A stretch of 64,000 nucleotides of DNA, from NCBI RefSeq assembly GCF_054482525.1, contig NZ_CM137006.1; one strand, given 5' to 3'. Positions 2,771 to 34,169 of the stretch are shown one piece after another. Every line of letters starts with the position of its first letter. Positions within the stretch are counted from its first letter, which is position 1. Position numbers and translations under genes: made by a program. The notes below the pieces were generated by a model. It ran no database searches. It saw nothing but the letters and a program-made list of their open reading frames with translations, and had not been told where the DNA came from.

Positions 2771-5700
2771 ATGATTCCACAGATTTCCCAGGCACCCGGC
2801 GTCGTTCAACTGGTGCTTAATTTTTTGCAAGAGCTGGAGCAACAGGGGTTTACCGGCGATACGGCGACAAGTTATGCCGATCGTCTGACAATGTCGACCG
2901 ACAACAGTATTTACCAACTTCTCCCCGATGCGGTGGTATTTCCGCGTTCAACCGCAGATGTGGCGCTGATCGCCCGTCTTGCCGCGCAGGAACGCTATTC
3001 ATCGCTGATCTTTACCCCCCGCGGCGGCGGCACCGGCACTAACGGTCAGGCGCTCAACCAGGGGATTATTGTTGATATGTCCCGCCATATGAACCGCATC
3101 ATCGAAATTAACCCTGAAGAGGGCTGGGTGCGCGTTGAGGCCGGGGTGATAAAAGACCAACTCAATCAGTACCTGAAACCGTTCGGCTACTTTTTTGCGC
3201 CGGAGCTTTCGACCAGCAACCGGGCAACGCTCGGCGGGATGATCAATACCGATGCGTCCGGTCAGGGATCGCTGGTCTATGGCAAAACGTCAGATCACGT
3301 ACTTGGCCTACGTGCGGTATTGTTGGGGGGCGATATTCTCGATACGCAACCTTTACCCGTCGAGCTGGCGGAAACGCTGGGTAAATCCAATACCACAATC
3401 GGGCGAATTTATAACACGGTTTATCAACGTTGCCGTCAGCAACGCCAGTTAATCATCGACAACTTCCCCAAACTTAACCGCTTTCTTACCGGTTACGATC
3501 TGCGTCATGTCTTTAACGATGAGATGACCGAGTTCGACCTGACGCGCATTCTGACGGGTTCAGAAGGGACGCTGGCCTTTATTACCGAAGCGCGGCTGGA
3601 TATTACGCCCTTGCCTAAAGTGCGCCGTCTGGTGAACGTCAAATATGACTCTTTTGACTCCGCGCTGCGTAACGCGCCGTTTATGGTTGAGGCGCGGGCG
3701 CTTTCGGTAGAGACGGTGGACTCAAAAGTGCTGAATTTGGCGCGGGAAGATATTGTCTGGCATTCCGTCAGCGAGTTGATTACCGATGTGCCTGACAAAG
3801 AAATGCTCGGGCTGAACATTGTGGAATTTGCTGGTGATGATGAGACGCTGATTGATGAGCGGGTAAATGCACTCTGTGCGCGGTTGGATGAACTGATTGC
3901 CAGCCAACAGGCAGGTGTGATTGGCTGGCAGGTGTGCCGCGAACTGGCGGGTGTTGAACGTATCTATGCGATGCGCAAAAAAGCTGTTGGTCTGCTTGGC
4001 AATGCCAAAGGTGCCGCTAAGCCAATTCCGTTTGCTGAGGATACCTGCGTACCGCCGGAACATCTGGCAGATTATATTGCTGAATTTCGCGCGCTGCTCG
4101 ACAGCCACGGCTTAAGCTACGGTATGTTCGGTCACGTCGACGCAGGTGTCTTGCACGTCCGTCCGGCACTGGATATGTGCGATCCGCAACAAGAGATTTT
4201 GATGAAGCAAATCTCTGATGATGTAGTGGCGCTTACCGCGAAATACGGTGGTTTGTTGTGGGGCGAACACGGCAAAGGTTTTCGCGCCGAATACAGCCCG
4301 GCGTTTTTTGGTGAGGAACTTTTTGCAGAACTGCGTAAAGTGAAAGCGGCATTTGACCCGCATAACCGACTCAACCCTGGGAAGATTTGCCCGCCAGAAG
4401 GTCTCGATGCGCCGATGATGAAAGTGGACGCGGTGAAGCGCGGTACATTCGATCGACAGATCCCCATTGCGGTACGCCAGCAGTGGCGTGGTGCAATGGA
4501 GTGTAACGGCAACGGTTTATGCTTCAACTTTGATGCCCGCAGTCCGATGTGCCCGTCGATGAAGATTACCCAGAACCGGATTCATTCACCGAAAGGGCGC
4601 GCAACGCTGGTGCGTGAATGGCTGCGTTTGTTGGCAGATCGCGGCGTTGACCCACTCAAACTGGAACAAGAGCTGCCTGAATCAGGCGTCAGTTTGCGGA
4701 CGTTAATTGCCCGCACGCGCAATAGCTGGCATGCGAATAAAGGCGAATATGACTTCTCCCACGAAGTCAAAGAGGCGATGTCTGGTTGCCTGGCCTGTAA
4801 AGCGTGTTCGACACAGTGCCCAATCAAAATTGACGTGCCTGAGTTTCGTTCTCGCTTTCTGCAACTCTATCACACCCGTTATTTGCGCCCGCTGCGCGAC
4901 CACCTCGTCGCCACGGTCGAGAGCTACGCACCGCTGATGGCACGCGCGCCGAAAACCTTTAACTTCTTCATTAACCAGCCGCTGGTGCGCAAACTCTCGG
5001 AAAAACATATCGGCATGGTTGATTTGCCGCTGCTGTCGGTCCCCTCGCTACAACAACAAATGGTGGGGCATCGCTCGGCAAACATGACGCTGGAACAGCT
5101 TGAAGCTCTCAGTGCAGAGCAGAAAGCGCGCACGGTGCTGGTGGTGCAGGACCCCTTTACCAGCTATTACGATGCGCAAGTGGTGGCGGATTTTGTCCGT
5201 CTGGTCGAAAAATTAGGTTTCCAGCCGGTGTTACTGCCATTTTCGCCAAATGGCAAAGCCCAGCATATCAAAGGCTTTCTTAATCGTTTTGCGAAGACGG
5301 CGAAAAAGACGGCGGATTTCCTCAACCGTGTGGCGAAGCTGGGGATGCCAATGGTGGGCGTCGATCCGGCGCTGGTACTTTGTTATCGCGATGAATATAA
5401 ACTGGCGCTGGGCGAGGAACGTGGCGAGTTTAACGTCTTACTGGCGAATGAATGGCTGGCAAGCGCACTTGACTCACAGCCAGTGGCTACAGTCAGCGGT
5501 GAATCATGGTATTTCTTTGGTCACTGTACCGAAGTTACCGCTTTGCCGGGCGCGCCAGCACAATGGGCCGCGATATTTGCCCGTTTTGGCGCGAAACTGG
5601 AAAATGTCAGCGTGGGTTGCTGCGGCATGGCAGGGACTTACGGACATGAAGCGAAAAACCATAAAAATTCGCTCGGGATCTATGAGTTATCCTGGCATCA

Positions 5701-5827
5701 GGCGATGCAGCGACTGCCGCGTAATCGCTGTCTGGCGACCGGATATTCCTGCCGTAGCCAGGTAAAACGGGTCGAAGGCACGGGGGTACGCCATCCTGTG
5801 CAGGCTTTACTGGAGATTATTAAATGA
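2771..5827 (+). CDS. ydiJ: FAD-linked oxidoreductase with C-terminal Fe-S cysteine clusters (D-2-hydroxyglutarate dehydrogenase-like), 1018 aa
   Basis: 1018-aa ORF with FAD-binding PCMH-type N-terminal region and CxxCxxC motifs; recognised as YdiJ. Confidence 0.9.
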   Translation: MIPQISQAPGVVQLVLNFLQELEQQGFTGDTATSYADRLTMSTDNSIYQLLPDAVVFPRSTADVALIARLAAQERYSSLIFTPRGGGTGTNGQALNQGIIVDMSRHMNRIIEINPEEGWVRVEAGVIKDQLNQYLKPFGYFFAPELSTSNRATLGGMINTDASGQGSLVYGKTSDHVLGLRAVLLGGDILDTQPLPVELAETLGKSNTTIGRIYNTVYQRCRQQRQLIIDNFPKLNRFLTGYDLRHVFNDEMTEFDLTRILTGSEGTLAFITEARLDITPLPKVRRLVNVKYDSFDSALRNAPFMVEARALSVETVDSKVLNLAREDIVWHSVSELITDVPDKEMLGLNIVEFAGDDETLIDERVNALCARLDELIASQQAGVIGWQVCRELAGVERIYAMRKKAVGLLGNAKGAAKPIPFAEDTCVPPEHLADYIAEFRALLDSHGLSYGMFGHVDAGVLHVRPALDMCDPQQEILMKQISDDVVALTAKYGGLLWGEHGKGFRAEYSPAFFGEELFAELRKVKAAFDPHNRLNPGKICPPEGLDAPMMKVDAVKRGTFDRQIPIAVRQQWRGAMECNGNGLCFNFDARSPMCPSMKITQNRIHSPKGRATLVREWLRLLADRGVDPLKLEQELPESGVSLRTLIARTRNSWHANKGEYDFSHEVKEAMSGCLACKACSTQCPIKIDVPEFRSRFLQLYHTRYLRPLRDHLVATVESYAPLMARAPKTFNFFINQPLVRKLSEKHIGMVDLPLLSVPSLQQQMVGHRSANMTLEQLEALSAEQKARTVLVVQDPFTSYYDAQVVADFVRLVEKLGFQPVLLPFSPNGKAQHIKGFLNRFAKTAKKTADFLNRVAKLGMPMVGVDPALVLCYRDEYKLALGEERGEFNVLLANEWLASALDSQPVATVSGESWYFFGHCTEVTALPGAPAQWAAIFARFGAKLENVSVGCCGMAGTYGHEAKNHKNSLGIYELSWHQAMQRLPRNRCLATGYSCRSQVKRVEGTGVRHPVQALLEIIK

Positions 5828-6234
5828 TATGGAAACGAAAAATCACCCTGGAAGCACTGAATGCTATGGGTGAAGGAAACATGGTGGGGTTGCTGGATAT
5901 TCGCTTTGAACATATTGGTGATGACACCCTTGAAGCGACAATGCCAGTAGACTCGCGGACAAAGCAGCCTTTCGGGTTGCTGCATGGAGGAGCATCCGTG
6001 GTACTGGCCGAAAGTATCGGTTCCGTTGCCGGTTATTTATGTACCGAAGGTGAGCAAAAAGTGGTTGGTCTGGAAATCAATGCTAACCACGTCCGCTCGG
6101 CACGAGAAGGGCGGGTGCGCGGCGTATGCAAACCGTTGCATCTCGGTTCGCGTCACCAGGTCTGGCAGATTGAAATCTTCGATGAGAAAGGGCGTTTGTG
6201 CTGTTCGTCACGATTGACGACCGCGATTTTGTGA
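5824..6234 (+). CDS. menI: 1,4-dihydroxy-2-naphthoyl-CoA thioesterase (hotdog fold), 136 aa
   Basis: 136-aa ORF recognised as MenI/YdiI; start overlaps the ydiJ stop by 4 nt (ATGA). Confidence 0.9.
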   Translation: MIWKRKITLEALNAMGEGNMVGLLDIRFEHIGDDTLEATMPVDSRTKQPFGLLHGGASVVLAESIGSVAGYLCTEGEQKVVGLEINANHVRSAREGRVRGVCKPLHLGSRHQVWQIEIFDEKGRLCCSSRLTTAIL

Positions 6235-6522: not shown

Positions 6523-6721
6523 TCCTGACTTAATGCCGCAATTTCGCCAAATCGACCTGGATTAACCTCCGTCCAGGTTCGATGACCTTCTTAATACTGC
6601 TTATCTACCCGCCTGATATTGTTCAAAAATAATACTAATCGCAGTTTGTGTTAAAACGGCGGGTTAGCTTTATGAGATTATTCTTATCGCCCCTTCAAGA
6701 GCTAAGCCACTGAGAGTGCCG

Positions 6722-6790
6722 GAGATAAGCGCCGGATGGGGTAGAAACCCTTAAGCCTGTGTCGCACAGACTTAAGGGTTTTCTTATTTC
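6722..6790 (+). ncRNA. rydB: Probable RydB small RNA; boundaries approximate
   Basis: K-12 places rydB between ydiH and sufA on the ydiH strand; long stem-loop 6746-6780 (AACCCTTAAG...CTTAAGGGTT) followed by TTTTCTTATTTC; the 5' end is not determinable by eye. Confidence 0.4.
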
Positions 6791-13799: not shown

Positions 13800-14048
<249 letters not shown>

Positions 14049-14346: not shown

Positions 14347-15759
14347 TTACAGGACGTGAACAGATGCGGTGTTAGTAGTGCCGCTCGGTACCAGTGCACC
14401 AGAAACCATAACTACAACGTCACCTTTGTGTGCCAGACCGCTCTGCAGAGCCAGTTCTTTACCCAGACGGTAGAAATCATCAGTAGAAGTGATCTCTTTA
14501 ACCAGCTGCGGCACAACGCCTTTGCTCAGTACCAACTGATGAGCCGTTTTTTCGTTGGTGGTCAGTGCCAGGATGGTGGCATCCGGGAAGTATTTACGTA
14601 CTGCGCGAGCAGATTTACCGCCCTGGGTAGCAACCACGATCAGCGGAGCATCCAGTTTTTCAGCAGTTTCAACGGCACCACGGCATACCGCTTCGGTAAT
14701 GCGCAGTTTACGGTTGTCATTGTTGAACTCGAGACGGCTGTTCATCACGCGGTCGGTACGTTCGCAGATGGTCGCCATGATAGAAACCGCTTCCAGCGGG
14801 TATTTACCTTTTGCGGATTCACCAGACAGCATCACTGCGTCAGTACCGTCGAGGATGGCGTTTGCAACGTCACCGGCTTCTGCGCGAGTCGGGCGTGGGT
14901 TTTTGATCATGGAATCCAACATCTGGGTCGCAGTGATAACGACTTTACGTGCACGGATACATTTTTCGATCATCATCTTCTGGGCGAAGATAACTTCTTC
15001 TACCGGGATTTCTACACCCAGGTCGCCACGCGCAACCATGATGCCGTCAGAGGCTTCGAGGATTTCGTCGAAGTTGTTGAGGCCTTCCTGGTTTTCGATT
15101 TTGGAGATGATGTGGATGTTTTCGCCGCCGTGCGCTTTCAGGTGCTCACGGATTTCGATAACGTCAGAACGCTTACGAATAAAGGAAGCAGCAACAAAGT
15201 CAACGCCTTGTTCGCAACCAAAGATCAGGTCCTGTTTGTCTTTTTCAGCCAGTGCTGGCAGGGCAATGGAAACGCCTGGCAGGTTCACACCTTTGTTTTC
15301 GCCCAGGTCGCCGTTGTTCAGCACTTTACAGATAACTTTGTTACCTTCAATGGCGGTAACTTCCATACCGATCAGACCATCGTCAACCAGTACGGTGTTG
15401 CCAACAGACAGGTCAGTAGTGAAACCTTCATACGTTACCGCAACCATTTCGCTGTTGCCGATAACAGATTTATCAGTGGTGAAAGTAAAGGTCTGACCCG
15501 CTTTCAGAGAAACGTCGTTACCGCCTTCCAGTTTCATGGTGCGGATTTCCGGACCTTTGGTATCAAGCAGGATAGCGGCGGTTTTACCAGTTTTGCTCAT
15601 CACGTTGCGCAGATTCTGAATGCGCTGACCGTGTTCTGCATAGTCACCATGAGAGAAGTTCAGACGCATAACGTTCATGCCAGCGTCCAGCATTTTAGCT
15701 AACATCTCTTCAGATTCGGTTTTCGGTCCGATGGTGCAAACAATTTTGGTCTTTTTCAT
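14347..15759 (-). CDS. pykF: Pyruvate kinase I (fructose-1,6-bisphosphate activated), 470 aa
   Basis: Start placed at the internal ATG giving [38 protein letters not shown]..., 470 aa; the ORF call over-extends by 72 codons. Confidence 0.95.
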
Positions 15760-16315
15760 GACAGTCTTAGTCTTTAAGTTGAGAAGGATGGGAGAAACTT
15801 GCTTTCTGGGCGCACTGCCGGAAAGCGAATCCGGTATTACGAAAGTGGTGGTGCCTCGCTCTAAGGATAGGTGACATCGAAAAAGCGTGCAGAGGAATGT
15901 GTGCTTGTGTCTCAGCCCAACGTGAGTGCCTGTTTTTGAGTCGTTGAGTTCTACAGTCCAAAGTGCTGAAACCATTCAAGAGTCAATTGGCGCGCATTAT
16001 ACGCTGAAATTAATCCAAAAGGAAAACAAAAACAGCGTTTCAAAAAATATACAACTTGTTAGACAATAAATTGTTATCAAAGATTTAACGTTCCAGGGAA
16101 AAGGTTACGCAAAAACTTCGCTGTTTGCGCAACGTCTGGTGCCGGGGTTGTCAGTGTGAGGATAAGTGAGAGTTCATCCGGTGTATAAATACATCATCGC
16201 TCAATTGCTACAGTGAAAATAATTTATCGCGTTATTTGTCTGATTTTGTTTGGTTTTTGTTTAATTGGTTAGATTGATATATGCTGATAGTTGGCATGAT
16301 AAATAGGTATAAAGA

Positions 16316-16525
16316 ATGGGAAACCGGACAAAAGAGGATGAACTGTACCGAGAAATGTGCAGAGTTGTCGGTAAAGTTGTGCTGGAAATGCGCGATCTGG
16401 GGCAGGAACCAAAGCATATTGTTATCGCAGGCGTATTACGTACAGCATTAGCCAATAAACGCATTCAGCGCAGTGAGCTGGAAAAGCAGGCGATGGAAAC
16501 CGTCATTAACGCACTGGTAAAATGA
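16316..16525 (+). CDS. fumD: Small fumarase-D-type protein FumD (YdhZ), 69 aa
   Basis: 69-aa ORF between pykF and ydhY, matching the K-12 YdhZ position and length. Confidence 0.75.
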   Translation: MGNRTKEDELYREMCRVVGKVVLEMRDLGQEPKHIVIAGVLRTALANKRIQRSELEKQAMETVINALVK

Positions 16526-16765
16526 CCATTCAGGATGAGGCGGTAAGCTTCATCCTGATATTCTTGCTTCAGTTGCGCTCCAGTTAATCACTCTAAATAA
16601 CAACTGCTGAAATTATACGAATTTCGGTATGTATTTTAATTTATAGCGATAATGTTATTTTTATTTTCTGCAATGAACGTCACAAATAATTGTCGCTTAA
16701 GTTAAATTTATTTCAAATGATAATAAATATCAGTTCACTTATAATTTCTTGCTTTGTGATTTTAA

Positions 16766-16779
16766 TTGATAACGATCAA
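16766..16779. promoter_or_regulatory. Perfect FNR consensus box TTGAT-aacg-ATCAA upstream of ydhY
   Basis: Exact match to TTGAT-N4-ATCAA about 200 bp upstream of the ydhY ATG; the ydhYVWXUT operon is reported as FNR-activated. Confidence 0.6.
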
Positions 16780-16980
16780 TGTTAAGGGCTCAGAATAATC
16801 ACATTATTTTTTCTCCTAACCATAAAGGATTAGTTTATCGGCGTTAAATCTTTTCTCATACACTATCGGGTTAGGGAAAATATCTGGTGTTGGGGACAGA
16901 GTCAGCAGCGTATTAGTTGAATGCTTAATATCAGGCTGCTGAATTGTCAGCACTGTGTTTGCGAAGAGGATGCGAAATAA

Positions 16981-19730
<2,750 letters not shown>

Positions 19731-19733
19731 GGA

Positions 19734-20381
19734 ATGGGTGAGATGAACCATCAGGATGAATTGCCGTTAGCGGAAGTCAGCGAAGTTGATGAGGCGAAGC
19801 GGCAATGGTTGCAGGGGATGCGTCACCCCGTTGATAAGGTAACCGAACCAGAACCTGCTGAAATCCTGGCAGAGTTCATTCGCCAGCATTCTGCGGCTGG
19901 GCAGCTGGTGGCGCGCGCCGTGTTTCTCTCGCCACCCTATTCGGTTGCAGAAGAGGAACTGTCAGTTTTGCTGGAAAACATTAAGCAGAACGGAGACTAC
20001 GCGGATATCGCGTGTATGACGGGAAGCCAGGATGATTACTATTACTCAACGCAGGCCATGAGTGAAAACTACGCGGCGATGTCTTTGCAAGTTGTGGAGC
20101 AGGACATTTGTCGCGCCATTGCACATGCCGTTCGTTTTGAGTGCCAGACGTATCCTCGTCCTTACAAAGTCGCCATGCTGATGCAAGCGCCATATTACTT
20201 CCAGGAAGCGCAGATTGAAGCCGCGATCGCCGCGATGGATGTTGCACCTGAATATGCCGATATACGGCAGGTGGAGTCATCGACGGCGGTGTTGTACTTG
20301 TTTAGCGAGCGATTTATGACCTATGGCAAGGCGTATGGCTTATGCGAATGGTTCGAGGTAGAGCAGTTTCAGAACCCCTGA
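19734..20381 (+). CDS. ydhW: Uncharacterized protein YdhW, 215 aa
   Basis: 215-aa ORF at the operon position of YdhW. Confidence 0.85.
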   Translation: MGEMNHQDELPLAEVSEVDEAKRQWLQGMRHPVDKVTEPEPAEILAEFIRQHSAAGQLVARAVFLSPPYSVAEEELSVLLENIKQNGDYADIACMTGSQDDYYYSTQAMSENYAAMSLQVVEQDICRAIAHAVRFECQTYPRPYKVAMLMQAPYYFQEAQIEAAIAAMDVAPEYADIRQVESSTAVLYLFSERFMTYGKAYGLCEWFEVEQFQNP

Positions 20382-20444
20382 AATTTCAGGGAGATGTCAT
20401 GGATAGGGTGGACAGTTGCAGCCACTGCATTAGGGGATAATCAG

Positions 20445-21113
20445 ATGTCCTTCACTCGACGCAAATTTGTTCTGGGGATGGGAACAGTAATCTTTTTTAC
20501 TGGTTCTGCGTCTTCTCTGTTAGCGAACACGAGGCAAGAAAAGAAAGTTCGGTATGCCATGATTCATGACGAGTCACGGTGCAATGGCTGTAATATTTGC
20601 GCCCGCGCATGCCGTAAAACCAATCACGTCCCCGCTCAGGGAAGCCGTTTATCGATAGCACACATTCCAGTCACCGATAACGACAACGAAACGCAGTATC
20701 ACTTTTTTCGCCAGTCATGTCAGCACTGCGAAGATGCTCCGTGCATCGACGTTTGTCCGACAGCGGCATCGTGGCGTGATGAGCAGGGGATCGTACGGGT
20801 AGAAAAATCGCAGTGCATCGGCTGCAGTTATTGCATTGGCGCTTGTCCTTACCAGGTTCGCTACCTTAACCCTGTCACTAAAGTGGCAGATAAATGTGAT
20901 TTCTGCGCTGAGTCCCGACTGGCAAAAGGCTTTCCGCCCATTTGCGTCAGCGCCTGCCCGGAACACGCCTTGATCTTTGGTCGCGAAGATAGCCCAGAAA
21001 TTCAGGCGTGGTTGCAGGAAAATAAATACTATCAATATCAGCTACCTGGTGCCGGGAAACCGCACCTGTATCGCCGGTTCGGTCAACATTTGATTAAAAA
21101 GGAAAATGTATGA
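20445..21113 (+). CDS. ydhX: Tat-exported 4Fe-4S ferredoxin-like protein YdhX, 222 aa
   Basis: Start placed at ATG 20445 (MSFTRRKFVLGMG, twin-arginine motif) with AGGGG RBS; four Cys clusters. Confidence 0.88.
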   Translation: MSFTRRKFVLGMGTVIFFTGSASSLLANTRQEKKVRYAMIHDESRCNGCNICARACRKTNHVPAQGSRLSIAHIPVTDNDNETQYHFFRQSCQHCEDAPCIDVCPTAASWRDEQGIVRVEKSQCIGCSYCIGACPYQVRYLNPVTKVADKCDFCAESRLAKGFPPICVSACPEHALIFGREDSPEIQAWLQENKYYQYQLPGAGKPHLYRRFGQHLIKKENV

Positions 21114-21895
21114 ACCCGTCGCAACATGCTGAACAGTTTCAGAGCCAGTTGGCGAACTATGTGCCACAGTTCACTCCCCAATTTTGGCCGGTGTGGTTGA
21201 TCATTGCCGGACTATTGCTGGTAGGGATGTGGTTGGTGCTGGGGCTGCATGCCTTGCTTCGTGCTCGTGGCGTGAAGAAATCAGCCACCGATCATGGTGA
21301 GAAGATTTATCTTTACAGCAAAGCGGTCAGATTATGGCACTGGTCGAATGCGTTACTCTTTGTATTGTTGCTGGCAAGTGGGCTGATAAATCACTTTGCG
21401 CTGGTGGGCGCAACTGCGGTTAAAAGTCTGGTTGCGGTGCATGAAGTTTGCGGATTTTTGTTACTGGCATGCTGGCTTGGCTTTGTTCTGATCAATGCCG
21501 TTGGGGGTAATGGTCACCACTATCGCATTCGTCGTCAGGGGTGGCTGGAGCGAGCGGCAAAACAAACGCGATTCTATTTGTTTGGCATTATGCAGGGGGA
21601 AGAACATCCTTTCCCGGCAACAACCCAGTCTAAATTTAATCCCTTACAGCAGGTTGCCTATCTTGGTGTCATGTATGGATTGCTGCCGTTGTTACTATTG
21701 ACGGGGCTGCTGTGTCTCTATCCGCAAGCCGTGGGAGATGTGTTTCCTGGCGTAAGATACTGGTTATTGCAGGCGCATTTTGCTCTGGCATTTATAAGCC
21801 TCTTTTTTATCTTCGGTCATCTTTATCTTTGCACCACGGGGCGTACGCCACACGAAACCTTTAAAAGCATGGTCGATGGCTATCACCGGCACTAA
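21110..21895 (+). CDS. ydhU: Cytochrome b-type membrane subunit YdhU (PhsC-like), 261 aa
   Basis: Polytopic membrane ORF overlapping the ydhX stop by 4 nt. Confidence 0.88.
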   Translation: MNPSQHAEQFQSQLANYVPQFTPQFWPVWLIIAGLLLVGMWLVLGLHALLRARGVKKSATDHGEKIYLYSKAVRLWHWSNALLFVLLLASGLINHFALVGATAVKSLVAVHEVCGFLLLACWLGFVLINAVGGNGHHYRIRRQGWLERAAKQTRFYLFGIMQGEEHPFPATTQSKFNPLQQVAYLGVMYGLLPLLLLTGLLCLYPQAVGDVFPGVRYWLLQAHFALAFISLFFIFGHLYLCTTGRTPHETFKSMVDGYHRH

Positions 21896-21898
21896 CGA

Positions 21899-22711
21899 AT
21901 GATCATTACACGAGCAGACCTGCGAGAATGGCGTATCGGAGCGGTGATGTATCGCTGGTTTCTGCGCCATTTCCCACGCGGCGGTAGTTATGCCGATATT
22001 CATCATGCACTGATTGAGGAAGGATATACGGACTGGGCGGAGAGTCTAGTTGAGTATGCGTGGAAAAAATGGCTGGCGGATGAAAACTTCGCGCATCAGG
22101 AAGTTTCTTCTATGCAAAAACTGGCCACAGATCCCGGAGAGAGACCATTTTGCAGTCAGTTTGCCCGCAGCGACGATCATGCTCGCATCGGCTGTTGTGA
22201 GGATAATGCCAGAATCGCAACTGCTGGGTATGCCGCGCAAATTGCCAGTATGGGTTATAGCGTGCGGATTGGAAGTGTCGGCTTTAACAGTCACATTGGC
22301 AGCTCCGGTGAACGCGCACGGGTTGCTGTAACCGGTAATTCTTCGCGGATAAGCAGCGCTGGAGATAGTAGTCGGATTGCGAATACCGGAATGCGAGTAC
22401 GCGTTTGTACATTGGGTGAACGGTGTCATGTCGCCAGTAATGGTGACCTGGTGCAAATCGCCAGCTTTGGCGCAAACGCCAGAATTGCCAACAGCGGCGA
22501 CAATGTACACATCATTGCCAGCGGTGAAGATTCAACAATAGTGAGCACGGGCGTGGTCGACTCAATTATTCTCGGGCCAGGGGGAAGCGCCGCACTGGCA
22601 TATCATGACGGCGAAAGAGTTCGCTTCGCCGTCGCCATTGAAGGTGAAAACAATATTCGAGCCGGAGTCCGCTATCGCCTTAATGAACAGCATCAGTTTG
22701 TTGAGTGCTGA
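21899..22711 (+). CDS. ydhT: Uncharacterized protein YdhT, 270 aa, with a central array of 9-residue repeats
   Basis: Last gene of the ydhYVWXUT operon; about 16 consecutive 9-aa units of pattern x-[RHQ]-[IV]-x-x-x-G-x-x read directly from the translation. Confidence 0.85.
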   Translation: MIITRADLREWRIGAVMYRWFLRHFPRGGSYADIHHALIEEGYTDWAESLVEYAWKKWLADENFAHQEVSSMQKLATDPGERPFCSQFARSDDHARIGCCEDNARIATAGYAAQIASMGYSVRIGSVGFNSHIGSSGERARVAVTGNSSRISSAGDSSRIANTGMRVRVCTLGERCHVASNGDLVQIASFGANARIANSGDNVHIIASGEDSTIVSTGVVDSIILGPGGSAALAYHDGERVRFAVAIEGENNIRAGVRYRLNEQHQFVEC

Positions 22712-22716
22712 TAGCT

Positions 22717-24327
22717 TTACATTTGATTAAACGAAAGACGCTGACGAGCACGGGATGCAGGCTTTACGACCGCCTGAGCCATCGCCTCACCAATTTCTGC
22801 ACATGCCGTAAGTCCCTGAACGAAAGGCTGGTCGTGCATTAACCAGGGCAACGCGCCGAACGCTACGCGCCCACGAATATCTTCGGGTTGCTGTAACGTA
22901 TAATCTTCGCCAACATCAGGGATTTCATCCCCTGTTTTCTGTAATTGTTCGCGTAGTCCAGGGAAAGGAATATCTTTCACTTTAAGCGGACGCTGCCCAC
23001 GGGCATCAATAAAAACGTCAAACGAGTAGCTGTTGTCTTCCGTTTTCAGGACGGTGCGCGACTCATTAATTTCCATTTCGTAGTCTTCACCGAGGGCGAG
23101 AATATGAATGATTCCCGCTTCACGTAAGGCCAGCAGCCGACGAATAGACTCTGAAGGGATTGCTGCATAATTATCTATGAAAACTCGGGCAAGGCCTTTA
23201 CTGAACCGTTTATGGTCGTGTTCATTCAGATGAGGAACAATTTCCTGTACGGCTTCATGCAGGCGCAGAATGACATAACGCCAGGGAACAGTATGTTTTT
23301 CTCGTTTATTGCGTTCGACTTCCTGGAGATTTTTTTCTGCCCAGTCAAATGGGTCGCGTTGTTTGCGCTCGGCAAACCAGGCTTGAGCAAAGGAATCAAC
23401 ATTCAGGCTCTCTAAGGCTATGCGTTGGCTCCAGTCTGGATCAGCAAACTTGATTTCCTCTACTATCAATCTAAATACCCGATCCAAAAGGCCCTCTTCG
23501 CCTTTTTGAATCTCAGCATTTAATGCCTGATCAGTGACGATGTGTAAGGGCTCGTAGGGAATAGGGCAATAGAAATCGGCTTCGGGTAAAATACCCGTGC
23601 GCGACATTAACGTAATATTTAGCTTTTCACTTGCGTTATCGCGGTGAAAAACGACGTGTTGTTTATCATCTTCAATGAACGAACCATGCTGAATAGCCAC
23701 TGCCATTGCCGCATCCAGTCCGCTCAAGGATGTTCCCATAATACCCACGTTACACGCATCGACCTTTGCTTCCATCAGGCCTGACCACGGGCTGGGAAAA
23801 TACGTTCTGGTTGCTTCTTCTTCATCAGGCCAGACGTGACCCGTCGCGATCACTGCTAAATCAAACGTCTCGCTGGGTAAATCCTGATTTGTAGCGAGCA
23901 TGACGCCAGCATTTATAATTTGCAGATCGGTAACCTGGCATGATTCATAAACAGCCACTGCAAATTTTTGCTGTCGTGCCTGGTCTACTAATCGTAAAAA
24001 TTGATCGCGGAAATATTCGCCCAGCAGAATTCGCGGTAAAAACTGACGATCGTGCAAGGTTTCTTTTTTAACGCCATAACGCTGGAGATGGCTGGCTTCT
24101 TGCTTTTGTAGCCATTCGAGATACGTACAATAAATCGGCGGTATTTCAATACTGGCAATATTTGCCAGCATCAGTTTTGAGTTTTCCTCATCACTGTATG
24201 GCATCCCGACACCGGCTTCATCAGCCTGCTCGAAGATAGAAATAGAAAGTGGAGTTTGTTGCTGTAGAAGCGAGAATAAGGTGTAGATCCCCGTAGGCCC
24301 GGCACCCACAATAGCAATTTTTTTCAT
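22717..24327 (-). CDS. ydhS: FAD/NAD(P)-binding protein YdhS, 536 aa
   Basis: N-terminal Rossmann motif IAIVGAGPTG; position convergent with ydhT. Confidence 0.88.
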   Translation of the reverse strand: MKKIAIVGAGPTGIYTLFSLLQQQTPLSISIFEQADEAGVGMPYSDEENSKLMLANIASIEIPPIYCTYLEWLQKQEASHLQRYGVKKETLHDRQFLPRILLGEYFRDQFLRLVDQARQQKFAVAVYESCQVTDLQIINAGVMLATNQDLPSETFDLAVIATGHVWPDEEEATRTYFPSPWSGLMEAKVDACNVGIMGTSLSGLDAAMAVAIQHGSFIEDDKQHVVFHRDNASEKLNITLMSRTGILPEADFYCPIPYEPLHIVTDQALNAEIQKGEEGLLDRVFRLIVEEIKFADPDWSQRIALESLNVDSFAQAWFAERKQRDPFDWAEKNLQEVERNKREKHTVPWRYVILRLHEAVQEIVPHLNEHDHKRFSKGLARVFIDNYAAIPSESIRRLLALREAGIIHILALGEDYEMEINESRTVLKTEDNSYSFDVFIDARGQRPLKVKDIPFPGLREQLQKTGDEIPDVGEDYTLQQPEDIRGRVAFGALPWLMHDQPFVQGLTACAEIGEAMAQAVVKPASRARQRLSFNQM

Positions 24328-24452
24328 TGTTACTTACCTGTACGCATTCTTTCGAATTTAGTGTTATCAGATAAGTTTGGTTGAGATTTTTAGAATTTGA
24401 GAAATTTCAGACAGGGATGAAAAGGGCGCTAACCGCCCTTGATTAAATTCTG

Positions 24453-24758
24453 TCAGGCGAGTTTTGCCTCATTGATTTGACTCAGTGGCTCATTGACATC
24501 GAAAACTTTGGCGACAACTTCCTCAACGCCGAGATTTTTCAGTCGGGCAGTATGTTTTTCCAGATAGGCAAGGGCGCTTTTTTCATCAGTGAAAAGGTAG
24601 ATCCCACCGGCTTCGTGGTTCTTTTCACTTTCTGTCCATACCTTCCACAGAAAACCAGGTTCCTGATTAATCGACTCAGCAAGTGGTTTAAGCTGCTCAG
24701 CCATTGCGTCGCCAAATGGGCCATTAAAAGCAAAATGAAGTTGTAACAAAGTTGCCAT
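24453..24758 (-). CDS. ydhR: Putative monooxygenase-like protein YdhR, 101 aa
   Basis: 101-aa ORF beside the tRNA-Val pair as in K-12. Confidence 0.85.
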
Positions 24759-24866
24759 AGCGATTCTCCTTCTGATAACGCATACGAAGACAGTGTAAAT
24801 CTTTTAACGTATTGGATACAGAGAAGAAACAGAGGGAAAAAAGGAGAAGACCAGATTAAGAAAATC

Positions 24867-24943
24867 TGGTGCGTCCGAGTGGACTCGAACCACCGACCCC
24901 CACCATGTCAAGGTGGTGCTCTAACCAACTGAGCTACGGACGC
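24867..24943 (-). tRNA. valW: tRNA-Val (anticodon GAC), 77 nt
   Basis: Reverse complement reads GCGTCCGTAGCTCAGTTGGTTAGAGCACCACCTTGACATGGTGGGGGTCGGTGGTTCGAGTCCACTCGGACGCACCA; copy adjacent to ydhR, so by K-12 order probably valW. Confidence 0.9.
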
Positions 24944-24947
24944 AGGA

Positions 24948-25024
24948 TGGTGCGTTCAATTGGACTCGAACCAACGACCCCCACCATGTCAAGGTGGTGC
25001 TCTAACCAACTGAGCTATGAACGC
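24948..25024 (-). tRNA. valV: tRNA-Val (anticodon GAC), 77 nt, second tandem copy
   Basis: Reverse complement reads GCGTTCATAGCTCAGTTGGTTAGAGCACCACCTTGACATGGTGGGGGTCGTTGGTTCGAGTCCAATTGAACGCACCA; 4-nt spacer from the first copy; differences are compensatory in the acceptor and T stems. Confidence 0.9.
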
Positions 25025-25332
25025 AACGTTGTAGGTGACAACGGGGACGAATATTAGCGGCAGAGTGGGAAGGTGGCAAGAGGCAAAACGTAATTTTCTG
25101 CGGTATTTCGACCGTTTGCAGAGCTTTTAAGCAAATTGGCTATATTTTGTTGATTTGCAAGGGCGATTTTTATTCAGGATCGCATTTACATCTGACACAA
25201 CCCAATAATCTGTGTATCAGAGTTTAAACAGAGTTGTTTGCCACCATCTCAAAATCTGTCGTGGATAAATCCTCCGTAGCCTTTACACTTAAGTAGCAAT
25301 AAAGGCACACAGATGCAGCAAAGGAATAAATC

Positions 25333-26589
25333 ATGGGATCTGATGCGAAAAACTTGATGAGCGACGGGAACGTGCAAATTGTTAAGACCGGCGAGGTCAT
25401 TGGCGCGACGCAACTTACTGAAGGTGAGTTAATTGTTGAAGCTGGCGCAAGAGCCGAAAATACCGTGGTCATGGGGGCCGGTTGGTTGAAAGTGGCAACT
25501 GGTGGGATCGCCAAATGCACACAGTACGGTAACAATGGCACGCTATCGGTCAGTGACGGTGCCATTGCCACAGATATTGTTCAGTCAGAGGGAGGCGCAA
25601 TTAGTCTCTCTACGCTCGCTACGGTTAATGGCCGCCATCCCGAAGGTGAATTCAGCGTTGATCAGGGTTATGCCTGCGGTTTGTTGCTGGAAAATGGCGG
25701 TAACCTGCGTGTACTGGAAGGACATCGCGCGGAAAAAATCATTCTCGATCAAGAGGGCGGCCTGTTGGTTAATGGGACAACCTCAGCGGTCGTGGTAGAT
25801 GAAGGTGGTGAATTGTTGGTGTATCCAGGTGGGGACGCCAGCAATTGTGAGATTAATCAGGGCGGCGTTTTTATGCTGGCGGGGAAAGCCAGTGATACAT
25901 TGCTTGCTGGTGGCACCATGAATAATCTCGGTGGTGAAGACTCTGACACTATTGTTGAGAATGGATCCACTTATCGTCTGGGGACGGATGGTCTTCAGCT
26001 CTACAGTTCCGGTAAGACGCAAAACCTGTCCGTTAATGTGGGTGGTCGGGCTGAAGTGCATGCCGGTACGCTGGAAAATGCGGTAATACAAGGTGGGACA
26101 GTCATCCTGTTGTCACCCACCAGCGCGGACGAAAATTTTGTCGTAGAGGAAGATCGCGCACCGGTTGAACTGACCGGTAGTGTTGCATTACTGGACGGCG
26201 CTTCAATGATTATTGGCTATGGCGCAGATCTGCAACAATCAACGATTACTGTACAGCAGGGCGGTGTATTGATTCTCGACGGCAGTACGGTAAAAGGTGA
26301 CAGTGTCACTTTCAGTGTTGGTAGCATCAATCTAAATGGCGGAAAACTGTGGCTAATCACTGGTGCGGCAACGCATGTGCAACTGAAAGTGAAACGCCTG
26401 CGCGGAGAGGGAGCGATTTGCCTGCAAACCAGTGCGAAAGAAATTTCACCTGACTTCATCAATGTGAAAGGGGAAGTTACTGGTGATATACACGTTGAGA
26501 TAACAGATGCCAGTCGGCAAACTCTGTGTAACGCACTGAAACTACAGCCAGACGAAGACGGGATTGGCGCAACGCTCCAGCCTGCGTAA
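25333..26589 (+). CDS. ydhQ: Autotransporter-passenger-like beta-helical protein YdhQ (no beta-barrel translocator domain), 418 aa
   Basis: Gly/Thr/Val-rich repetitive composition typical of adhesin passenger domains; recognised as YdhQ. Confidence 0.85.
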   Translation: MGSDAKNLMSDGNVQIVKTGEVIGATQLTEGELIVEAGARAENTVVMGAGWLKVATGGIAKCTQYGNNGTLSVSDGAIATDIVQSEGGAISLSTLATVNGRHPEGEFSVDQGYACGLLLENGGNLRVLEGHRAEKIILDQEGGLLVNGTTSAVVVDEGGELLVYPGGDASNCEINQGGVFMLAGKASDTLLAGGTMNNLGGEDSDTIVENGSTYRLGTDGLQLYSSGKTQNLSVNVGGRAEVHAGTLENAVIQGGTVILLSPTSADENFVVEEDRAPVELTGSVALLDGASMIIGYGADLQQSTITVQQGGVLILDGSTVKGDSVTFSVGSINLNGGKLWLITGAATHVQLKVKRLRGEGAICLQTSAKEISPDFINVKGEVTGDIHVEITDASRQTLCNALKLQPDEDGIGATLQPA

Positions 26590-26629: not shown

Positions 26630-28024
<1,395 letters not shown>

Positions 28025-33616: not shown

Positions 33617-33660
33617 TCCATTTCACTCCAGACCCTAACTTCAGCTCCTGCAAAATCGCA

Positions 33661-33676
33661 AGGTAAACGTTTGCCT
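33661..33676. promoter_or_regulatory. PUR-box-like palindrome AGGTAAACGTTTGCCT upstream of purR (autoregulatory operator candidate)
   Basis: Core AAACGTTT palindrome matching the PurR operator consensus, 45 bp upstream of the purR ATG. Confidence 0.55.
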
Positions 33677-33914
33677 TTACACACCTTACGCACAACAAAA
33701 GTGTTGCGGTACGCCGGAAAAACGACACGGAGCGTCAGGAAGGGGTCAATGGCCAGTACGCAAATAGTGTAAGCGTGGAATTTTGGCCGATCTTGACGAA
33801 AAGGGGAAGTGGTAAAAACACTTATCATTATAAATGACGGGAGATTTTTTCATCACAGTGTGTAAAAATGCGTAATATCACTTTTTGTGTGGTAATAAAA
33901 AAGGAGAAAACTTG

Positions 33915-34004
33915 ATGAGCACCGACCTTAAATTTTCACTGGTAACAACGATTATCGTCCTCGGTTTGATCGTGGCCGTGGGTTTGACTGCCGCGCTGCA
34001 CTGA
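33915..34004 (+). CDS. ynhF: Small membrane protein YnhF, 29 aa
   Basis: ATG 33915 preceded by AAGGAGAAAA; translation MSTDLKFSLVTTIIVLGLIVAVGLTAALH, a single TM helix. Confidence 0.7.
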   Translation: MSTDLKFSLVTTIIVLGLIVAVGLTAALH

Positions 34005-34169
34005 TTTCCTCTCGAGGGAGCGCGTTCTCCCTCGCATCTCCTTCCTGTTTGTTAGCAAAATGGCAAAAGTGTTTTCTCTTTTTGTTATTTTCATTTTTTT
34101 GTGATTGCTGTCATGCTTTCGCCACTTAAATGAATATCGCGTAATGACGCGAAGAGGTGGAGATAAGGC

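Follow-up and report, generated by a model that had tools for sequence, protein, structure and literature searches.

The closest described system is the valV-valW operon of Escherichia coli K-12. Primer extension placed the transcription starts of this operon 18 and 19 nt before the 5′ end of mature valV, and the spacer between the two genes is UCCU (PMC2190699). RNase P splits the dicistronic transcript at the two mature 5′ ends without a need for RNase E, and operon termination is Rho-dependent (PMC2190699; PMC4176162), with no recognisable terminator (PMC2190699). tRNA-Val2A and tRNA-Val2B are recognised as separate species (PMC6895100; PMC4535986). This textbook tRNA operon is the model substrate for the RNase P-dependent separation of polycistronic tRNAs. 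In Salmonella, the flank of the same tRNA locus carries other genes. SPI-2 is located next to tRNA-valV, in the interval from ydhE to pykF (PMC3158058; PMC5799925), and S. bongori has SPI-22 next to tRNA-valV (PMC3158058).

Here, a locus with two tandem tRNAVal(GAC) genes is described from a 64-kb stretch of DNA that was analysed as a whole (the window). The locus is almost certainly the valV-valW operon of E. coli, without a recent mobile element and with a 3′ flank formed by an old Escherichia-specific block. No evidence against the identification as valV-valW was found.

The valV-valW operon in the window

The window contains exactly two tRNA genes according to ARAGORN, both for tRNAVal(GAC) and both on the minus strand. 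Both score well above the gathering score of 29 of the Rfam tRNA model (RF00005). The operon and its signals are laid out as follows, in the direction of transcription.

25051..25079, minus strand: sigma-70 promoter, −35 TTGCCA (25079-25074), 17-nt spacer, −10 TAATAT (25056-25051) (consensus scan)
25025..25043, minus strand: predicted 5′ leader of the primary transcript, about 18-19 nt (coordinates transferred from PMC2190699 through the identical sequence)
24948..25024, minus strand: valV, tRNAVal(GAC), first gene of the operon (ARAGORN; Rfam tRNA, 70.1 bits; equals K-12 b1665)
24944..24947, minus strand: intergenic spacer of 4 nt, UCCU, from the CCA end of valV to the 5′ end of valW (sequence)
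24867..24943, minus strand: valW, tRNAVal(GAC), second gene of the operon (ARAGORN; Rfam tRNA, 69.6 bits; equals K-12 b1666)
24850..24870, minus strand: putative 3′ trailer hairpin ACCAGAUU-UUCUU-AAUCUGGU, followed by CUUCUCCUUUUUUCCC, which includes the CCA end of valW (terminator-like scan match)

The 2 kb around the tRNA genes are 100% identical to E. coli PCN033, and a similar 2-kb sequence is present in 5425 of the 5426 complete E. coli genomes. The gene order in the matching PCN033 record is ydhQ, two tRNAVal genes, ydhR, and ydhS. Both tRNAs, the UCCU spacer, the leader, and the promoter hexamers are 100% identical to those of valV (b1665) and valW (b1666) in K-12 MG1655, where the operon has the same neighbours, ydhQ upstream and ydhR downstream. 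Eight substitutions or indels distinguish the window from K-12 in the 573-nt ydhQ-ydhR intergenic region, none of which fall in the tRNAs, the spacer, the leader, or the promoter hexamers. The identity to b1665 and b1666, the spacer, and the synteny (ydhQ, valV-valW, ydhR) all place the locus with the E. coli operon. The valV-valW pair is a real, ordinary, and already characterised operon, and beyond correct annotation the locus matters little.

The original prediction described two 77-nt tRNAVal(GAC) genes 4 nt apart, with stem substitutions that remain paired. ARAGORN, Rfam, and the spacer sequence (AGGA on the plus strand, UCCU in the RNA) bear this out, and the quoted acceptor halves (GCGTCCG/CGGACGC versus GCGTTCA/TGAACGC) are correct. 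The minus-strand orientation, which was left unsaid, is the sole correction; in this minus-strand operon, valV is the upstream gene and has the higher coordinates. The acceptor halves are GCGUUCA/UGAACGC in valV and GCGUCCG/CGGACGC in valW, the T stems are GUUGG/CCAAU and GGUGG/CCACU, respectively, and both genes encode CCA. Aligned with each other, the 77-nt valW and valV genes differ at six linear positions (5, 7, 51, 65, 67, and 69). All six are compensatory, as they make up three pairs that are each altered on both sides. The acceptor pair 5:69 is C-G in valW and T-A in valV, the acceptor pair 7:67 is G-C and A-T, and the T-stem pair 51:65 is G-C and T-A.

Each gene has standard pairing at 21 of 21 stem pairs and forms a cloverleaf with a 7-bp acceptor stem, a 4-bp D stem, a 5-bp anticodon stem, and a 5-bp T stem. 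Because the changes are limited to three stem pairs altered on both sides, both genes keep a perfect cloverleaf, the anticodon, and the discriminator base. ValRS identity elements are A35 and C36 in the anticodon and the discriminator base A73. ARAGORN places the anticodon GAC of both valV and valW at position 35, and the discriminator A of both genes is at linear position 74, before CCA. Judged by this anticodon and discriminator base, both genes are predicted to encode tRNAVal isoacceptor 2.

On the tRNA strand, TTGCCA-17-TAATAT is the only sigma-70-like site in the consensus scan, with hexamer matches of 5/6 and 4/6. The hexamers and their position agree with the promoter mapped by primer extension (PMC2190699). 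The published steps of transcription and processing would apply to the window strain, to which they are transferred through the identical sequence. From the single sigma-70 promoter on the minus strand, both genes would be transcribed into one dicistronic precursor, which would have a leader of about 19 nt in front and the 4-nt spacer between the tRNAs. RNase P cleavage at each mature 5′ end would then remove the leader and separate the two tRNAs. Exonucleases would trim the 3′ trailer, with the encoded CCA ends retained. The expected products are two variants of valine isoacceptor 2, tRNA-Val2A and tRNA-Val2B, reading GUC and GUU.

The hairpin at 24850-24870 has a fold energy of −12.3 kcal/mol (z = −3.5). 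It looks like a weak terminator, a putative function, and it could affect 3′ trimming or cause weak termination. A weak hairpin with a U-rich tail after valW contrasts with the published absence of a recognisable terminator (PMC2190699).

An antisense RNA was also considered. On the plus strand, positions 24742-24905 match the Rfam model HPnc0260 over its full length with 112 bits (gathering score, 59), which could mean that a real antisense RNA covers valW and the ydhR leader. However, read as its reverse complement, the 3′ end of the model corresponds to the T arm and acceptor of a tRNA. In six of seven other loci scanned, the model likewise hits the strand opposite the last Val gene, with 60-104 bits and with unrelated flanks; the matches are in E. 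albertii, Proteus, Klebsiella, Enterobacter, Citrobacter, and Salmonella, and there is no match in Serratia. Moreover, the consensus scan gave no plus-strand promoter for such an RNA. An antisense RNA at this position is very improbable, and HPnc0260 was rejected as an RNA gene. The match is most likely a model artefact that arises from the antisense-tRNA segment.

Elsewhere in the window, known enterobacterial small RNAs were identified with Rfam at the gathering score. These are RprA at 977-1084 on the minus strand (118.8 bits), rydB at 6689-6749 on the plus strand (81.6 bits), and STnc550 at 33617-34007 on the plus strand (396 bits), the last adjoining purR. Adjoining rprA, the minus-strand gene at 44-661 encodes a 205-aa protein annotated as a hypothetical protein (WP_000016731.1). 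This gene is within the part of the window with the lowest G+C (0.43 over 1-2000).

Covariation and spread of tandem tRNAVal(GAC) genes

Tandem tRNAVal genes were sought by a pattern scan of species-representative genomes, which gave at least 120 loci, and all tallies refer to this sample. The pattern fixed the tRNA core and allowed any base (N) at some stem positions, so that the D and anticodon stems were unable to vary. The confinement of acceptor-stem variation to pairs 4-7 is partly due to this pattern-based selection of loci. The pattern left positions 50-52 of the upstream gene free, as well as the whole downstream gene beyond position 44.

Among the matches listed, the loci (at least 120) hold 275 tRNAVal(GAC) genes with 16 distinct sequences, in arrays of 2-5 copies. 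Cloverleaf pairing is present in 99.7% of the stem cells of these listed genes, and seven pairs have double changes. For the same 16 distinct sequences, the covariation score is 0.231, compared to 0.074 in shuffles, and the score was reached by none of 500 shuffles. When the pairing partners were slid as a control, pairing fell to 27-51%. This covariation supports the tRNA stems, in a sample with a fixed core.

The exact pair of a valV-type gene followed by a valW-type gene, in the same order, is present in at least 45 species loci among the matches listed. The genera with this pair include Escherichia, Citrobacter, Enterobacter, Phytobacter, and Mangrovibacter. Tandem or closely spaced tRNA duplicates are typical of integrative elements, and one of the two copies could accordingly be a decaying by-product of integration, either a copy borne by an island or phage or a duplicated target. 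In Cedecea, a third full valV-type copy is indeed found 2-3 kb downstream, with cargo genes between. However, both copies in the window are full length, with perfect cloverleaves and scores of about 70 bits, and the same ordered pair is conserved across these species. In addition, both tRNA species exist in cells (PMC6895100; PMC4535986), and the 4-nt spacer leaves no room for an element. An origin of either copy as a remnant of integration is therefore extremely improbable. The occurrence of the exact pair in several genera instead indicates that valV and valW are old paralogues, which therefore diverged before these Enterobacteriaceae genera split. Pseudogene status for one copy was likewise rejected, on the basis of the intact stems, the conservation in at least 45 species, and the recognition of both tRNA species (PMC6895100; PMC4535986).

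The tandem tRNAVal(GAC) arrays of other Enterobacterales share the mdtK-pykF position, the anticodon, and the core with the window, and their variation is compensatory and located in the acceptor and T stems. Copy number, spacing, and similarity of the copies differ between groups. Arrays in Serratia, Rahnella, Proteus, Xenorhabdus, and Photorhabdus have identical copies and spacers of 19-30 nt, whereas most loci in Enterobacteriaceae and Erwiniaceae have differing copies and spacers of 2-18 nt. Klebsiella, Kluyvera, and Pseudocitrobacter have three Val copies. Some loci from Rahnella, Serratia, and Proteus (L009, L017, L045, L095, and others) carry 3-5 identical genes with equal spacers (28/28, 20/20, 21/21, and four of 29 nt). 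Equal spacers together with identical copies indicate recent amplification of the unit or concerted evolution.

In Intestinirhabdus alba (L049), the middle of three genes (2280-2356, oriented) has a valW-type 5′ acceptor half and a valV-type T stem and 3′ half. This combination leaves a C-A mismatch at 5:69, which is the sole broken stem pair among the 275 listed genes, and a G-U pair at 7:67. The gene looks like a chimera produced by unequal crossover.

In the two Cedecea loci, the third valV-type copy is complete and lies 3.0 kb after the valV-valW pair in Cedecea neteri (L041, 3986-7247) and 2.0 kb after it in Cedecea davisae (L040). The third copy is followed by pykF, and the cargo is bracketed by full tRNA copies. 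In C. neteri, the interval between the tRNA copies holds ORFs of 132, 314, and 307 aa, none of which has the size or appearance of an integrase. By eye, we take these ORFs to resemble RidA-, esterase-, and LysR-type proteins.

Signs of integration at the tRNA locus

In the matching PCN033 record, the annotation lists no integrase, transposase, or phage gene anywhere in the 64 kb. The first genes downstream of the array are ydhR and ydhS, and no tyrosine integrase adjoins the tRNA genes. A search for partial copies of the 3′ end of either tRNA (17-25 nt, up to 3 mismatches) found none elsewhere in the 64 kb. Among direct repeats between positions 14000 and 29000, the only sizeable one is the tRNA pair itself, and the others are short two-copy matches, often due to chance. 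The earlier statements that neither flank holds an integrase gene or a duplicated 3′ tRNA segment are therefore upheld for the window.

The stability of the junction between valW and ydhR was assessed with a 318-nt probe that comprises both tRNAs and 160 nt downstream, and the junction was scored as intact when at least 80% of the probe was covered in one piece. It is unbroken in 5424 of the 5426 complete E. coli genomes; one genome has a broken junction and one has no match. The only complete genome with a match and a broken junction is that of E. coli WCHEC050613 (L003), in which an IS3-family element (4745-5958) lies about 40 nt downstream of valW. This element is not a tRNA-targeting island. 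The G+C content over the ydh block is 0.46-0.51, close to that of the rest of the window. The locus thus lacks two features by which an island would be recognised, namely atypical base composition and variable presence among strains. The locus carries no recent mobile element.

In 1.0 Mb of related loci, no partial tRNA copy resembling an att site was found, and the five extra matches there are flanking full tRNA genes. None of the ten loci tested has an integrase directly downstream of the Val array. Searches of 150 representative downstream proteins of other species against Pfam and PHROGs returned no integrase among the top 25 families listed. In these loci, which were compared with short flanks of at most 7 kb, the region downstream of the array tentatively seems to vary without site-specific integration.

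The mdtK-array-pykF slot

The genes that surround the operon in the window are bounded by two conserved anchors.

26630..28003, minus strand: mdtK (ydhE), conserved upstream anchor (PCN033 annotation; tblastn across loci)
25333..26589, plus strand: ydhQ, AIDA-repeat protein, between mdtK and valV (PCN033 annotation)
15760..24866, no strand assigned: 9.1-kb block between valW and pykF (PCN033 annotation; tblastn in at least 120 species loci)
14347..15759, minus strand: pykF, conserved downstream anchor (PCN033 annotation; cross-species tblastn)

The 9.1-kb block comprises ydhR, ydhS, ydhT, phsC/ydhU, ydhX, ydhW, ydhV, ydhY, fumD, and ynhH, and many other Enterobacterales lack it at this site. 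The neighbouring proteins of the window were compared by tblastn with the loci of the pattern scan (at least 120), of which 98 have at least 1.5 kb of downstream sequence and could be assessed on that side. Upstream, mdtK is within 250 bp of the array in 61 of the 80 loci where it was found, among the matches listed. In the Escherichia loci, where ydhQ intervenes, this distance is about 1.6 kb. Downstream, pykF is within 1 kb of the array (0.35-0.86 kb) in 32 of the 98 assessable species loci among the matches listed. These loci span several families and include Serratia, Rahnella, Proteus, Xenorhabdus, Photorhabdus, Morganella, Pantoea, Erwinia, Sodalis, Cedecea, and Mangrovibacter. Among the same listed matches, pykF follows at 1.4-6.3 kb in 7 of the 98 loci, and other genes come first in the remaining 59. 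The first gene is a ydhS homologue in 12 Enterobacteriaceae loci, ydhR in 3 Escherichia loci, and another gene in 44. Among the matches listed, the three Escherichia loci are the only ones with ydhR as the first downstream gene and also the only ones with ydhQ upstream.

The content of the slot depends on the genus, and the downstream ORFs of the listed matches fall into 167 protein clusters among 326 ORFs. In the one Salmonella locus examined, from Salmonella enterica subsp. diarizonae, type III secretion genes of the SsaU/SsaT type begin 180 bp after the array. The first two of these match the YscU/SpaS family (PF01312, 1.7e-102) and export family 1 (PF01311, 5.3e-49), in keeping with the published location of SPI-2 (PMC3158058; PMC5799925).

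A pristine tRNA site, which was never targeted and beside which nothing ever inserted, would agree with the lack of an integrase and of an att-like repeat in the window, with a flank G+C close to that of the rest of the window, and with the invariant valW-ydhR junction within E. coli. However, such a site does not fit the short array-pykF distance in the 32 listed species from several families, compared to 9.1 kb here, or the genus-dependent genes that intervene. It also disagrees with the type III secretion genes in the Salmonella slot and with the location of SPI-2 and SPI-22 at tRNA-valV (PMC3158058). A never-used site is therefore unlikely. The proximity of pykF to the array in many genera, its distance of 9.1 kb here, and the SPI-2-type genes in Salmonella point to an old variable slot. 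The slot between mdtK and pykF is an old variable region that appears to be integrase-free, as already stated in the SPI-2 literature.

We infer that the order mdtK-array-pykF is ancestral. With this order as the starting point, the ydh block would be an old insertion in the Escherichia lineage, where parsimony sets the direction (insertion here versus loss elsewhere). The original prediction had regarded the tRNA locus as unoccupied by an island. This holds for recent mobile elements, given the missing integrase and 3′ repeat and the intact junction, but not for the history of the flank, which consists of 9.1 kb of lineage-specific DNA in a slot that is the site of SPI-2 in Salmonella. For genome scans, this means that a tRNA gene without a neighbouring integrase or att repeats is not necessarily a site that has never been used.

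A broader proposal, which we regard as possible but doubtful, is that the interval between the Val(GAC) array and pykF is a recurrent, integrase-independent insertion hotspot in Enterobacteriaceae, and that the order and sequences of valV and valW are kept by selection. The slot may have been refilled many times with unrelated cargo, including SPI-2, SPI-22, the E. coli ydh block, transporters, and regulators. Selection could act because the diverged stems and the 4-nt spacer block recombinational collapse of the array, or because they set the order of RNase P cleavage. If true, both ideas would extend known themes and would not represent new kinds of systems.

Compared with known systems, the locus resembles integrase-mediated tRNA islands, which have a P4-type integrase and a 3′-end repeat, in that lineage-specific DNA lies 3′ of a tRNA gene. 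Unlike these islands, the window locus has no integrase, no 3′-end repeat, and no presence/absence variation among E. coli. SPI-2 of S. enterica and SPI-22 of S. bongori share the chromosomal slot with the window locus, on the 3′ side of the Val array and with ydhE/mdtK and pykF as its borders. As in the window, no integrase was found adjoining the tRNA in the Salmonella locus examined. The contents of the slot differ between the two, with oxidoreductase genes and genes of unknown function from ydhR to fumD in E. coli and a secretion system in SPI-2 of Salmonella. The ydh block of E. coli is fixed within the species, and its composition is unremarkable.
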